A DNA stretch of 64,000 nucleotides from Fibrobacter sp. UBA7003 (GTDB taxonomy: Bacteria; Fibrobacterota; Fibrobacteria; Fibrobacterales; Fibrobacteraceae). The position numbers and the translations under genes were made by a program. Of this stretch, positions 37,241-40,810 are shown one piece after another. The notes below the pieces were generated by a model. That model made no database searches. It worked only from the letters and a program-made list of their open reading frames with translations, and was not told the DNA's origin. Positions within the stretch are counted from its first letter, which is position 1; each line of letters starts with the position of its first letter. Location: assembly GCF_002449765.1 (NCBI RefSeq), contig NZ_DJXN01000008.1. The stretch is one strand, 5' to 3'.

Positions 37241-38224
37241 ATGGATATTCAGGAACTTTCGGAAAAGGTGCGCCAGCAGAGTGCTTTTTGCATGAATTTG
37301 CTGCGTGAAGTGGAAGGGACGGTGATTGGCCAGAAGGCTCTGGTCGAAAGCATTCTGACGGGTATTTTGGCGGACGGTCACGTGCTGCTGGAAGGCTTGC
37401 CGGGCCTTGCCAAGACGACTGCGGTGAAGGCTTTTGCCGATGCTGTGTCGCTGGACTTCAAGCGCATCCAGTTCACTCCCGACCTGTTGCCGGCCGACTT
37501 GCTGGGTACCACGATTTACAACGCGAAGGAAGCGAAGTTCGAAACCCGTAAGGGCCCGCTCTTCACGAACCTCGTGCTCGCCGATGAAATTAACCGTGCT
37601 CCGTCGAAGGTGCAGAGCGCCCTCCTCGAAGCCATGCAGGAACGCCACATCACGATTGGCGACGAGACGTTCAAGCTGGACGAGCCGTTCCTGGTGCTTG
37701 CCACGCAGAACCCCATCGAGCAGGAAGGTACGTATCCGCTGCCCGAAGCCCAGGTGGACCGTTTCCTGTTGAAGGTGAAGGTCAGCTACCCGAACAAGGC
37801 CGACGAAATGAAGATTCTCGACGCCGTTGCCGGTGCGGGGCTGCGCCAGCCGCAGGCTGTCGCCACGAAGGAAGATATCCTTGCCGCCCGCCAGCTCGTG
37901 AAGCAGGTGTACGTGGACGAACGCGTGCGCGAATACATCGTGAACCTGGTGCTTGCGACCCGCGATCCGGGCAGCATCAAGCGCAGCGACCTGGTGGGCT
38001 TTGTGGAAGTGGGCGCCTCGCCGCGTGCATCCATCGGCCTTGCCCAGGCTTCGAAGGCTCATGCGTTCATCCAGGGCCGCGCCTACGTGACGCCGGAAGA
38101 TGTGAAGGCCGTCGCGATGGAAGTGCTCCGCCACCGCATTATCCTCAGTTACGAGGCCGAAGCGGAAGAAGTCTCCGCCGAGACTGTGGTGCAGAAGATT
38201 CTGGATTCTGTTGAGGTTCCGTAG
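37241..38224 (+). CDS. moxR: MoxR-family AAA+ ATPase
   Basis: Starts at MDIQELSEKV. GQKALVESILTGILADGHVLLEGLPGLAKT, LADEINRA, LATQNP and a RASI...A C-terminal block. 327 aa. Confidence 0.9.
   Translation: MDIQELSEKVRQQSAFCMNLLREVEGTVIGQKALVESILTGILADGHVLLEGLPGLAKTTAVKAFADAVSLDFKRIQFTPDLLPADLLGTTIYNAKEAKFETRKGPLFTNLVLADEINRAPSKVQSALLEAMQERHITIGDETFKLDEPFLVLATQNPIEQEGTYPLPEAQVDRFLLKVKVSYPNKADEMKILDAVAGAGLRQPQAVATKEDILAARQLVKQVYVDERVREYIVNLVLATRDPGSIKRSDLVGFVEVGASPRASIGLAQASKAHAFIQGRAYVTPEDVKAVAMEVLRHRIILSYEAEAEEVSAETVVQKILDSVEVP
38106..38224 (+). repeat. copy 1 of a 119-bp diverged direct repeat (functional 3' end of moxR)
   Basis: Aligns without gaps to 40589-40707. The first 38 nt are identical, with about 16 mismatches overall. 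Nearly all mismatches are synonymous, and the encoded peptides differ at one residue (V/F). Confidence 0.85.
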
Positions 38225-38278
38225 TCGCGGCCATCTCTAACCGACATTGTTATCTCGCACTCGTTGCGGGATCTCCAC

Positions 38279-38914
38279 TTACATAAGCCGGGCCTTGAGC
38301 TCGGCTTTCACTTTTTTGAGGTCGCCGCTGGTGAGAATGGGAATGAGACTGTTGATTTCGTCGATGGGCTTGTCCCACCACTTGAACTTGAGCAGAAGTG
38401 CGGTGAGTTCGTCGTCGAATCGCTTGCGGATGAGTTTGGCAGGGTTCCCTGCCACGATGGTGTAGGGCTCCACGTCGCTTGCTACGACGGAGTTTGCCCC
38501 GATGATGGTACCGTCGCCGATGTGAACGCCTGGGAGAATCGTCACATTCTGCCCGATCCACACGTCGTTCCCGATGACGGTATCGCCTTTGAACGGCATA
38601 TCTTCGCGGGCGGGCGGTGCCATGTCCCAGCCCTGCAGCGTGTAGAACGGGAAGGTGGAAACCGCATTCATCTGGTGGTTCGCCCCGTTCATGACGAATT
38701 CCACGCCGGAGGCAATTTGGCAAAATTTGCCGATGATGAGTTTGTCTCCAATGAAGTTGTAATGGTGCGTCACGTGGCTCTCGAAATCCGAATCGGCAAT
38801 GTAGGTGAAATCGCCCACGATTATATTCGCTCTCTTGAGCGTCGGCTTCACGTAGATTTCCTTGTCGTAGCCCGCGATGGGGTGGATTGTATTCGGGTCG
38901 GGTCTTGTTATCAT
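38279..38914 (-). CDS. vat: Vat-family streptogramin A O-acetyltransferase (xenobiotic hexapeptide acyltransferase)
   Basis: From MITRPDPNTIHPI. DKLIIGKFCQIASGVEFVMNGANHQMNAVSTFPF, KGDTVIGNDVWIGQNVTILPGVHIGDG and KWWDKPIDEI are collinear with VatD blocks (GKFCSIGPG ... NGANHRMDGSTYPF ... KGDTIIGNDVWIG ... KWWNWPID). Confidence 0.85.
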   Translation of the reverse strand: MITRPDPNTIHPIAGYDKEIYVKPTLKRANIIVGDFTYIADSDFESHVTHHYNFIGDKLIIGKFCQIASGVEFVMNGANHQMNAVSTFPFYTLQGWDMAPPAREDMPFKGDTVIGNDVWIGQNVTILPGVHIGDGTIIGANSVVASDVEPYTIVAGNPAKLIRKRFDDELTALLLKFKWWDKPIDEINSLIPILTSGDLKKVKAELKARLM

Positions 38915-38980
38915 AGCGGGAAACCTTTTGCTAAACGTCACTTTTCTTTTTTGCGGTTTTTCAAGCACGTCTTTTGCTTT

Positions 38981-39280: not shown

Positions 39281-40096
39281 TTAATTCTGTTGGCGGTGGG
39301 CGTCCTGTTCGAAAATCGTCTTGATGTATGCCTGCACCTGCTTGACGGAGAGAGGGGTGTTGCCGCTTTCGAAGGTGGCGATGAAGTTCTTGCCGAGGAT
39401 GTAGCCGCTGGCGGCGTATCGGGAGATTTTCTGCACGGCGTTTTCGGTGTAGTCGGGGTCGCCCATCAGGCCGAAGTGCTCCCAGATGATTTCTTCGCGG
39501 GAGCTGGTGCGCAGGCAGGTGAAATCGGGGTAGAGCGTACCCCAGCCTTTGACGCTGGTAGGGTATTCGTAGCGGAAGGGGATGCCTGCGCGATTGAGCG
39601 CGTCTGCGATGATGACTTCGGATTTTGAGCGGACGCGCACGCCCGTGCTCGTGAAGAATTCGGGTGCGTTGATTTCGAAGGGCTTGCCGGTGTAGGGGAG
39701 GTGCTGCCATGCAGCGATGAAATCCTCGTCGGGCTCGCGCACGGGCGTCACAAGGGGGCGGCGGCCGGGGTGTAGCCCCGTGAACGCGGTGTCGATTTCT
39801 TCGGGATGGTAATTCTCCGTCAGGTTGTTGAGTGCGATGATTTGCCTGCCGATGATGCCTGCGACAGCCGCGTTGTAATCGCGTTGCGCGATTGCCGCCG
39901 CCCTGCGTCGTTCCTTGCGGGGGAGGTATTTTCCGTTAGAGTTGCTGCCCTTGTCTACGAGATAGTATTGCGACCGGTCATGGTTGGTTATGACTCGCAA
40001 TCTTCCTGTGGGTTGCTTTCCCTTGGGGAGTTTAGCCTTCAGTGCGATCAGTTGCTGAATCCGCTCGTTGGCGATTTGAATGAGTTGGTCTGCCAT
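39281..40096 (-). CDS. hypothetical protein with a C-terminal PD-(D/E)xK-like (restriction-endonuclease fold) motif arrangement
   Basis: ATG at 40096 with a purine-rich stretch upstream (alternative TTG at 40159). VRSKSEVIIADALNRAGIPFRYEYP ... LYPDFTC ... IIWEHFG resembles the S-x-x-E / PDF / h-E-x-x-G layout of TnsA, Vsr and DUF559-type nucleases. Confidence 0.5.
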   Translation of the reverse strand: MADQLIQIANERIQQLIALKAKLPKGKQPTGRLRVITNHDRSQYYLVDKGSNSNGKYLPRKERRRAAAIAQRDYNAAVAGIIGRQIIALNNLTENYHPEEIDTAFTGLHPGRRPLVTPVREPDEDFIAAWQHLPYTGKPFEINAPEFFTSTGVRVRSKSEVIIADALNRAGIPFRYEYPTSVKGWGTLYPDFTCLRTSSREEIIWEHFGLMGDPDYTENAVQKISRYAASGYILGKNFIATFESGNTPLSVKQVQAYIKTIFEQDAHRQQN

Positions 40097-40269
40097 TTCC
40101 GTTCCCTTTTTCTGTGAAACAAAAAAGCGCTGATACGCCGTTTTAACGGACGATATCAACGCTTATGTGTCCCTAATATACAAAGTGTGTGGCAAAAAAA
40201 CAAGTTGATGCTTTAGGCGGCAGTTGGATAGCATTTTTTTTGACTTTTGAACGTCTGTTTTGCGGGGGC

Positions 40270-40508
40270 TTACATACCAAAGACGTAAATAGTGGTGGTT
40301 GGTATGTAAAAAAGGTTGCGAAAGAGCGAAAAGTGTCCCAAATGGGGTCGCGGATGACGAAATTAGGGCGATTTTTGCTTAGTTTGTCTGTGTTTTGGCT
40401 ATTTTTTACATACTAAAACATTGCTTCGGGAAAATAGGTATGTAAGGTCTGTGAATGCTGGTTGCGGATTGCATACTAATTGAACTTTTTTGGTGTTTTA
40501 GTATGTAA
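40270..40508. repeat. three 40-bp units, each with 11-bp inverted arms (consensus TTACATAC[CT]AA) around an 18-bp non-conserved spacer
   Basis: Unit 1 is 40270-40280 / 40299-40309, unit 2 is 40406-40416 / 40435-40445, and unit 3 is 40469-40479 / 40498-40508. The spacer is exactly 18 nt in all three. Confidence 0.8.
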
Positions 40509-40588
40509 ATAGATGCGTTTTCCCCGCTCCTAGACGACTTCTCTGAGGTTCGCGGGCGTTATTTTGCAACCTATAGGCGGTTTTCCGC

Positions 40589-40707
40589 AGGCCGTCGCGA
40601 TGGAAGTGCTCCGCCACCGCATTATCTTAAGCTACGAGGCCGAAGCGGAAGAAGTCTCCGCCGAAACCTTCGTGCAGAAGATTCTCGACAGCGTCGAAGT
40701 GCCGTAA
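40589..40707 (+). pseudogene. orphan 3' fragment of moxR (copy 2 of the 119-bp repeat)
   Basis: Encodes AVAMEVLRHRIILSYEAEAEEVSAETFVQKILDSVEVP-stop with no upstream moxR body. Homology starts abruptly at 40589. Confidence 0.8.
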
Positions 40708-40771
40708 ACTTCGCGATCATCTTTGGCGCATTAAACCTGCGCAGGAATCGCACAGAAATCATATGAGAAAG

Positions 40772-40810
40772 AAGAACGCCCCGACAAGAGGCGTTCTTTT
40801 ACTATTTTAA
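40772..40810 (+). terminator. rho-independent terminator following the orphan moxR 3' end
   Basis: Stem AAGAACGCC (40772-40780), a 9-nt loop, stem GGCGTTCTT (40790-40798), then a T-rich tail. Confidence 0.6.

Follow-up and report, generated by a model that had tools for sequence, protein, structure and literature searches.

Background

In REPIN-RAYT systems, single-copy genes are flanked by repeats with which they are specifically paired and whose spacers are unique (PMC3337134). A REPIN consists of two inverted arms round a spacer that is unique to each copy (PMC3337134, PMC3116915), and the RAYT proteins are HUH/Y1 enzymes related to the TnpA of IS200/IS605 (PMC3337134). The present analysis deals with a stretch of 64,000 nucleotides from Fibrobacter sp. 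UBA7003 (contig NZ_DJXN01000008.1), hereafter called the window, in which an array of three spaced palindromes lies upstream of a gene for a 271-amino-acid (271-aa) protein with a predicted restriction-endonuclease fold. This arrangement is like REPIN-RAYT in that a gene of a nuclease family lies beside its own palindromic repeats, with many gene-less copies in intergenic DNA, and in that there is one repeat type per protein lineage, with several orthogonal pairs per genome and unique spacers of fixed length. On the other hand, the predicted fold is that of the PD-(D/E)xK restriction endonucleases and not that of the HUH/Y1 enzymes, which act on single-stranded hairpins; the spacers are not self-complementary, the units fold weakly and are phased by the helical repeat of duplex DNA, and the arrays are fixed in geometry and placed on one side of the gene. 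Judged by this analogy, the system in the window resembles REPIN-RAYT but is not a member of it, since both the enzyme class and the DNA form differ.

A binder gene preceded by its own phased sites, with more sites elsewhere, is also the arrangement of plasmid Rep proteins and their iterons, of Bacillus subtilis RTP with IRI and IRII, and of Escherichia coli Tus with TerB. The window shares with these systems the repeated, phased sites just upstream of a presumed binder gene and the extra gene-less sites, but it differs from them in the nuclease fold with catalytic-type residues, in the wide spacing of the palindromes (12 + 16 + 12 bp), in the presence of several paralogues per genome with different specificities, in the rapid turnover of specificity and in the absence of a plasmid context. 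The latter also speaks against a plasmid iteron/Rep or MOBC relaxase/oriT system: no full-length homologue of the protein was found among 72,556 plasmids, and its gene has ordinary chromosomal neighbours. As the IMG/VR viral database contained no homologue either, a plasmid or phage origin was ruled out.

With regard to the enzymes, FokI dimers and the engineered zinc-finger nuclease (ZFN) and transcription activator-like effector nuclease (TALEN) pairs are PD-(D/E)xK nucleases whose two recognition modules flank the non-specific spacer in which they cut, while SfiI represents the interrupted-palindrome, two-site type. Inverted half-sites, a nearly free spacer of fixed length, a predicted binding module fused to a nuclease fold and multiple sites in cis are all found here too. 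The arms of 11-12 bp and the spacer of 16-18 bp, however, are far larger than those of natural type II sites. A further difference is that the sites belong to the chromosome of the host itself, and the neighbours of the gene include no methyltransferase partner.

Three spaced palindromes upstream of a nuclease-fold gene

The features on which the analysis is centred are the following.

40270..40309, no strand: unit 1, TTACATACCAA-N18-TTGGTATGTAA, gene-proximal, a perfect 11-bp inverted repeat
40406..40445, no strand: unit 2, TTACATACTAA-N18-TAGGTATGTAA, its centre 136 bp (13 helical turns) from that of unit 1
40469..40508, no strand: unit 3, TTGCATACTAA-N18-TTAGTATGTAA, distal, its centre 63 bp (6 helical turns) from that of unit 2
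40174..40184, minus strand: promoter-like motif TTTGTATATTA, with a -10-like TATATT at 40175-40180, conserved whatever the arm type; a sequence motif only
40114..40164, minus strand: 5' leader hairpin AAGCGTTGATA...TATCAGCGCTT (40125-40164) plus U-run, between the promoter-like motif and the ATG
39281..40096, minus strand: gene for the 271-aa protein, with its start as in the homologues

We lean, with modest confidence, to the view that the three units are recognition sites in double-stranded DNA for the adjacent 271-aa protein. An earlier note on this DNA had described three units with 11-bp inverted arms and spacers of exactly 18 bp, and these are present as described. Their degenerate form, TTRCATACYAA-N18-TWRGTATGTAA, gave 0.00 matches in 100 dinucleotide-preserving shuffles of the window, in which no further copy of the 40-bp pattern was found with 3 mismatches allowed. 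Among 165 distinct units of the TTACATAC type the conserved arm measures 12 bp, TTACATACTAAA. The description of the arms as kept and of the spacer as not kept holds for the arms and needs to be amended for the spacer: positions 14-18 are free in these 165 units, but the middle 2-4 bp are nearly all A/T, with 96% A/T (C+G 4%) at position 20 and about 80% at position 19. The central bases of unit 1 are AAAT, and its counterpart in the locus alignment is the proximal unit of loci L004, L005, L081 and L082.

The earlier note was also correct in that no unit is followed by a T-run, although a separate hairpin at 40125-40164 has one; with their AT-rich stems and 18-nt loops, the three units were ruled out as intrinsic terminators. 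The partial match that had been noticed at 38278-38286 (TTACATAAG), by contrast, falls outside the system. It lacks a partner arm and departs from the 11-mer at 4 positions, whereas chance alone would give about 14 sites in the window that differ from the arm by up to 2 mismatches, and the string is the reverse complement of the final codons of a vat gene, which it accompanies beside genes of other arm types as well (e.g. at L016).

Duplex DNA versus hairpins

The centre-to-centre distances between units are multiples of about 10.55 bp (105 non-redundant neighbour distances; Rayleigh R 0.906 at a period of 10.5-10.6), the values seen being 21.5, 53-54, 63-64.5, 72.5-75, 84-86, 93-95.5, 104.5-106.5, 127, 136, 146.5-147.5, 158, 170, 191 and 256 bp. 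The composition inside the units alternates as well, AT and GC following a 10.5-bp period whatever the arm sequence: the AT fraction, taken over 131 units of other arm types, starts from 0.75-0.79 at the centre, falls to 0.34-0.5 at ±3-6 bp, rises to 0.85-0.95 at ±9-12 bp and drops to 0.15 at ±16 bp. On the gene strand the mismatches between arms comprise 17 G·T, 29 A·C and 66 of other kinds, and neither strand shows a wobble (G·U) bias. The hairpins that the units could form in single-stranded DNA are predicted to be weak (-3.3 to -8 kcal/mol), the spacers are not self-complementary, and a search of Rfam with positions 39900-40800 (E<=10) rendered nothing relevant. The phasing, the AT/GC alternation and the lack of a G·U bias argue for bent double-stranded DNA bound on one face rather than for RNA or hairpins, and together these results bear the signature of a protein complex on one face of bent B-DNA. 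Between the two possibilities that the earlier note had offered, protein recognition of paired half-sites and conserved-stem hairpins, these results favour the former, as do the weakness of the hairpins and the covariation with the N-terminus of the protein described below.

The units could nevertheless act as single-stranded hairpins, either as REP-like single-stranded DNA or as a transcribed array that the nuclease would process, in the way of type III toxin-antitoxin systems (ToxI repeats, terminator, toxN). The perfect palindromy of the arms, which is retained as the arm sequence changes across lineages, would fit such a function, and so would 34 compensatory arm changes inside loci and the near-identity of whole units, loop included, in tandem repeats of some Firmicutes and Treponema loci (L030, L070, L077). 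Moreover, the succession of tandem repeats, a terminator-like hairpin and a nuclease gene is that of ToxIN. However, periodicities of 10.55 bp between units and of 10.5 bp within them have no rationale for RNA or single-stranded DNA, which would also have to be reconciled with the unbiased arm mismatches (17 versus 29), with AT-rich stems and 18-nt loops that fold weakly, with the negative Rfam search and with a conserved promoter-like motif that lies downstream of the array. The repeats of ToxI are direct, fully conserved and transcribed, with 34-36 nt, and ToxN is an endoribonuclease of a different fold, whereas the fold predicted here is that of a DNA endonuclease and not of ToxN/Kid, and PADLOC rendered no match of the ToxIN type. 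We consider the hairpin function very improbable.

The adjacent protein and its relation to the arms

The homologues place the start of the protein at MADQ... (40096) and not at the TTG start of the 292-aa open reading frame (ORF). The 271-aa protein has no match in Pfam, NCBIfam or PHROG, only its C-terminal ca. 115 residues match an entry of PADLOC (the C-terminus of PDC-S68, a 1,200-aa candidate), and a sequence search found no homologue with a solved structure. An AlphaFold2 (AF2) model based on 24 homologues (predicted local distance difference test score, pLDDT, 88.3) predicts a variable N-terminal helix plus beta-hairpin (residues ca. 1-55), a helical middle section and, at the C-terminus, a domain of the restriction-endonuclease fold. 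In Foldseek comparisons with the PDB the model matched Bax1 (probability 0.98), DrdV, MunI and Vsr, with E-values of only 0.01-0.9, and 16 BFVD entries matched at E<=1e-3, including a viral restriction enzyme, DUF559, DUF2726 and TnsA-N. The C-terminal motifs RVRSKSE, PDF and WEHFG are invariant, and within them E160 (RSKSE), D191 (PDF), E206 and H207 (WEHFG) are the same in all 24 sequences; E160, D191 and E206 are the candidate catalytic residues, and the pattern looks closer to the Vsr/DUF559 type than to the canonical D...ExK. With the alpha/beta core present in the model, the protein is predicted to belong to the restriction-endonuclease-like, PD-(D/E)xK fold superfamily. About 4,000 relatives or clusters were found at E<=1e-3, all of them unnamed and covered by no Pfam or NCBIfam model, and members of the family occur in Fibrobacter, Treponema, Lachnospiraceae, Clostridia and other gut and rumen anaerobes.

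We sampled 80 loci of homologues from reference genomes (Fibrobacter, Treponema, Lachnospiraceae, Clostridia and others) and searched the 800 bp upstream of each gene for exact 8-mer inverted pairs. By this strict criterion, 2-10 palindromic units of 36-44 bp precede the gene in 58 of the 80 loci. The pairing of repeats and protein is thus not peculiar to the window and is met with again in hundreds of gut and rumen bacteria. The arms are uniform within a locus and specific to a lineage, the types including GGGGCGTATAAA, GGGGCATATAA, ATGCATATAA, CGTACCTATAA, TTACGGACTAA, TTACGTACTAA, GGTCACTAA, ATTACCACTAAA, TACCGGCAAAA and GTACCTATAA, while the homologue at L001 is of the GGGGCGTATA type; paralogues of the same genome bear different arms (L016, L017, L024). 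For 207 pairs of proteins whose nuclease domains share at least 75% identity, the similarity of the arms follows the identity in residues 1-55 (Spearman 0.79) and not that in residues 56-135 (0.22) or 136-262 (0.22). The beta-hairpin between LR and QYY (LR-x8-QYY) differs by arm class: hairpins of the NH type, similar to VITNHDRS, pair with TTAC(A/G)(T/G)AC arms, and those of the K/R-N-S-F type, similar to (Q/L)xHK(N/K)SF, with ..(G/A/C)TATAA arms. A promoter-like motif and leader, situated between the array and the N-terminal codons, are common to different arm types (the window and L009/L020; L001 and L008), which makes co-inheritance by mere adjacency a weaker explanation of the covariation. 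We infer that the N-terminal ca. 55 residues would be the part of the protein that reads the arms.

Across modules that are 86-96% identical the arms are invariant, and the spacers and linkers accumulate point substitutions and keep their length. Conserved repeat parts alternating with variable segments of constant length are also found in CRISPR, TIGR and integron attC arrays, from which the present arrays differ in their inverted pairs, their helical phasing and the drift of their variable parts; no Cas, Tas or integrase (IntI) genes were found near the array. Acquisition of spacers in the manner of CRISPR or TIGR was ruled out, as the spacers of the 86-96% identical modules are homologous and have merely drifted.

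At four loci, L030, L070, L077 and L026 (Clostridia, Lachnoclostridium, Treponema and Fibrobacter), entire units, spacer and all, are repeated in tandem in near-identical form, e.g. 6 x 39 bp at 74-75 bp, 10 units at 54 bp or 5 units at 64 bp. These arrays look like recent expansions. That of L026 lies downstream of the gene and not upstream.

Arrays without the gene

An exact-unit scan of metagenome contigs rendered at least 80 loci. The gene for the 271-aa protein is missing from 76 of the 80 matches listed and encoded in the other 4, a ratio which, among these matches, would be consistent with some twenty arrays to a single gene in each genome. Gene-less arrays have 2-5 units with a geometry of 63/136 or 63.5/147.5 bp and occupy at least 20 intergenic contexts, which a crude ORF call classified, among the matches listed, as 24 tandem, 20 convergent and 16 divergent. 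Among the genes beside them are polysaccharide lyases, GatB, a GSCFA-like gene and, accompanied by lipoproteins, members of the TIGR02147 family, and only arms, lengths and A/T-tract tendencies are conserved from one context to another. The earlier note had considered that a motif common in unrelated contexts would point to a generic repeat. The motif does occur in many such contexts, yet its dispersed copies keep arms and geometry while everything else diverges, which argues for a function and not against it. Arrays are stable at orthologous sites, with no inversion in 49 orthologous pairs, so that invertible segments (shufflon or invertase sites) were ruled out, and their copy number changes by two units (199 bp) at a time. 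Certain arrays whose flanks are unrelated share 76-88% identity over their full length, which indicates that arrays get copied to new places. Gene-less arrays of other arm types are usually found near a gene of the same type (L020, L022, L026, L028, L033).

The dispersal of the arrays raises the question of whether they are a host architectural or regulatory element read by another trans-acting factor, such as a nucleoid-associated protein or one of the many Fibrobacter paralogues of the TIGR02147 helix-turn-helix (HTH) family, the nuclease-fold gene being just one neighbour among others. Most arrays of the TTACATAC arm type are indeed not beside the 271-aa gene, they lie in tandem, divergent and convergent intergenic regions alike, and a TIGR02147-like gene is situated ca. 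280 bp from the array in 12 of the 80 matches listed, as well as from a second array at L022. This explanation nevertheless seems improbable to us, as arrays with arms of their own also precede the homologues of Treponema, Lachnospiraceae and Clostridia, the array occupies the same upstream position in those 58 of the 80 gene loci, and the arm type follows the N-terminus of the nuclease-fold protein. The HTH regions of TIGR02147 proteins next to TTACATAC and to GACCTATAA arrays differ no more than do those of two proteins that both adjoin TTACATAC arrays; they do not follow the arm type, and the TIGR02147 proteins were discarded as readers of the arms on this comparison of three sequences, which is weak evidence.

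Several gene-less arrays share further features. Often the array lies ca. 280 bp upstream of the TIGR02147-family HTH gene, which is followed by a large lipoprotein gene (L158 215-652, 929-3760; L022 5755-7090; L111, L128), and an AT-rich stretch with repeated TTGATTTTT is found between the array and the TIGR02147-family gene. A gene-less subfamily (L091, L100, L129, L133, L155, L158 and others) has an extra motif, ACAAAGTA, ca. 5 bp outside certain arms and inverted in the 24-bp linker, and a conserved end, ..GGATAATTG, ca. 40 bp past the last unit; the array of L091, where the gene is absent, is of the TACCTATAA type.

A possible mode of action

If the adjacent protein is the binder, each unit would be occupied by a dimer, with one N-terminal module (helix plus beta-hairpin, residues ca. 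1-55) on each arm reading its outer 7-8 bp. The outer arm segments would then lie about three helical turns apart on the same face, and the DNA would be able to bend round the protein thanks to the TAAA tracts on the inner side of the arms and, in the spacer, the flanks richer in G/C and the centre made up of A/T only. In this geometry, which recalls that of FokI or TALENs, the two restriction-endonuclease-fold domains would be placed over the centre of the spacer. Cleavage or nicking at that point is suggested by the geometry and the conserved catalytic-type residues of the model only. Since the units are separated by integral helical turns (63 and 136 bp), the dimers could line up on one face of the DNA and form a wrapped, higher-order complex. 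The module would be expressed from its own promoter-like motif through the terminator-like leader, and the same protein specificity might serve many gene-less arrays in intergenic DNA. It is possible that the complex takes part in local recombination that shuffles the cargo genes and has duplicated the end of moxR (see below).

Several observations weigh against the protein acting on these sites. Its N-terminal module has no match to a known DNA-binding fold, and the covariation of arms and N-terminus is partly confounded by phylogeny and physical linkage. The 34 compensatory arm changes within loci would be unexpected if the half-sites were purely independent; many of them are at the arm edges. 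A gene-less TTACATAC array is found near a gene of another arm type (L016), and a distant homologue (29% identity), on an unverified virome scaffold, has no array. The array is out of phase with the promoter-like motif, autoregulation being plausible but unproven. Finally, if the nuclease is active, it has to be explained how the chromosome that encodes it can contain many perfect sites; tight control of expression, an activity limited to nicking, or binding only are possible answers.

A full-text search (Fibrobacter palindromic repeats, TIGR02147, PDC-S68) found no published description of the arrays or of the protein family, and Pfam, NCBIfam, PHROGs, PADLOC, Rfam and the PDB contain no model for the full-length protein or the arrays. 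It may be, and we put this forward as a tentative and still doubtful proposal, that they constitute an undescribed and distinct class of repeats, in which phased, bendable, spaced palindromes co-evolve with a single-copy restriction-endonuclease-fold protein that has a swappable specificity module of ca. 55 residues, a counterpart of REPIN-RAYT in double-stranded DNA. To our knowledge, domesticated nucleases with their own dispersed repeats have so far been known mainly from REPIN-RAYT, and the present system would then be an independent example, in duplex DNA. Two half-sites with a fixed spacer could in that case allow cutting or nicking of the A/T centre and drive local recombination and the exchange of cargo. 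Should the adjacent protein read the arms, an unannotated family of ca. 4,000 clusters would gain a testable function, the recognition of 2 x 12 bp sites, and the matched pairs of proteins and sites, with dozens of arm sequences, could serve to derive the recognition code of the N-terminal module. Arrays also mark variable regions with accessory genes, here a Vat-like acetyltransferase, and as repeats they can break or confuse assemblies of Fibrobacter metagenomes.

The module, its cargo and the moxR insertion site

In the window the array and the gene are part of an insertion between an intact moxR (end at 38224) and an orphan copy of the last ca. 140 bp of this gene. The insertion holds three minus-strand ORFs, for a Vat-like acetyltransferase, a 93-aa product and the 271-aa protein. 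Apart from the gene and the array, its features are as follows.

38279..38968, minus strand: Vat-like hexapeptide acetyltransferase, cargo; beside other arm types in L011, L014 and L016, replaced in L082 and L083
38981..39262, minus strand: 93-aa ORF, cargo; follows TTACATAC-type genes in L004, L006 and L007, absent in L081
40509..40517, no strand: outer edge of the array-plus-gene module; homology to L081, in another genomic context, ends at 40517
40587..40729, plus strand: orphan duplicate of the 3' end of moxR (88% identity with 38107-38246), which makes up the outer insertion junction jointly with 40518-40586

The stretch 40517-39311 is 86% identical to L081, which adjoins purA rather than moxR, and the homology begins 9 bp outside the distal arm and ends at the end of the gene. 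A second locus, L082, is 96% identical to the window module and has other downstream genes. To judge from these comparisons, the array and the 271-aa gene (40517-39281) are a module of ca. 1.2 kb that appears to move as a unit. In close relatives, vat and the 93-aa ORF are swapped for other genes, which makes them cargo and not partners. At 13 Fibrobacter loci a family member lies at the 3' flank of moxR, and both arms and cargo differ among them (the latter being vat, an MBL-fold protein, the 93-aa ORF or absent), whereas in distant taxa the neighbours of the gene are unrelated, ordinary genes; except for this synteny with moxR in Fibrobacter, no conserved partner gene of the family was found.

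The earlier note had proposed that the array could be an operator for a three-gene operon, or else an end-recognition site of the inserted element. The first proposal is not supported, in view of the limits of the module, which comprises the array and the 271-aa gene with vat and the 93-aa ORF exchangeable, of a distance of more than 100 bp to the promoter-like motif with no fixed phase, and of the presence of identical arrays between convergent genes elsewhere. The second fared better in part, inasmuch as homology stops 9 bp past the distal arm, but neither a second end nor a target duplication was found.

According to a wider version of the second proposal, a mobile or integrative element has the array as one of its ends, a platform for recombination or cleavage where the nuclease breaks the DNA, and this would explain both the turnover of cargo and the duplication of the moxR 3' end. 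It overlaps with the explanation that we prefer, being an alternative for the function of the sites and not for their binder, and it draws on the results just given: the boundary 9 bp beyond the distal arm, the same module (86% identical) in moxR and purA contexts, and the different modules and cargo at the moxR 3' flank of 13 Fibrobacter loci. The moxR duplication is what would be expected from the insertion of a circle by a single crossover, and similar arrays with unrelated flanks exist, e.g. L102 and the L104 group (88%). However, neither a second end nor terminal inverted repeats around the module nor a target-site duplication could be found, the vicinity contains no integrase, transposase or relaxase, and plasmid and IMG/VR viral homologues are lacking. 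The 49 orthologous pairs revealed no inversions or rearrangements inside arrays either, and most dispersed arrays share arms and geometry only, without recent common sequence. Synteny may break preferentially at the distal end of arrays (13 versus 6 pairs, as scored by an ungapped method that confuses indels with breaks). On balance we regard it as unlikely that the array is the end of such an element, and the preferred explanation remains that of binding sites for the 271-aa protein.

Some minor observations concern the same region. The duplicated moxR 3' end (88%) has the structure expected from a single-crossover insertion of a circle carrying the moxR 3' segment. At L159, L188, L199 and L208 the same module, together with the moxR fragment, is located after and not before a 70%-identical copy of a 914-aa gene, a difference in position which indicates that the region has been rearranged more than once. 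A terminator-like hairpin for moxR (38285-38307, plus strand) is contained in the 3' end of the convergent vat coding sequence. The Vat-like protein scores 275.9 bits against NCBIfam Vat_ABCDEFH, just under the 300-bit cutoff, and is, by sequence, a relative of the streptogramin acetyltransferases which rumen Fibrobacter carry as cargo that can be exchanged. The product of the 93-aa ORF is rich in cysteines, begins like a signal peptide and has no family match; the ORF is fused or extended in L082.

Promoter-like motif and leader of the gene

The array lies more than 100 bp upstream of the promoter-like motif, and no helical phasing was found between the motif and the proximal unit: in five loci, where a count by hand gave 83.5-159 bp, the distance is not an integral number of turns. 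The motif TTTTGTATATTA recurs at -70 to -90 from the ATG in ca. 20 related Fibrobacter loci, independently of the arm type, and may be a general Fibrobacter promoter element of the -10 type.

The leader hairpin has a predicted RNA fold of -26.4 kcal/mol (z -4.65) and was partly recovered by a terminator scan. It is retained with G·U-compatible and compensatory changes in L004, L005, L006, L009, L020 and L081, and that its variants are of these kinds on the gene strand argues for a genuine leader terminator or attenuator; accordingly, the element at 40114-40164 looks like an intrinsic terminator or attenuator, although of a putative kind. A different hairpin with the same layout (GCTACGC...GCGTAGC plus T-run) occupies the leader position in L001, L003 and L008. 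These leader sequences suggest that the nuclease-fold gene might be controlled by attenuation. In place of the leader hairpin, L010, L013, L015, L023, L028, L033 and L037 have a paired 8-bp palindrome, TTTGCAAA (e.g. TTTGCAAACGGTTGTTTGCAAAATGA), at most 60 bp upstream of the start, and these pairs may be an operator of another kind.

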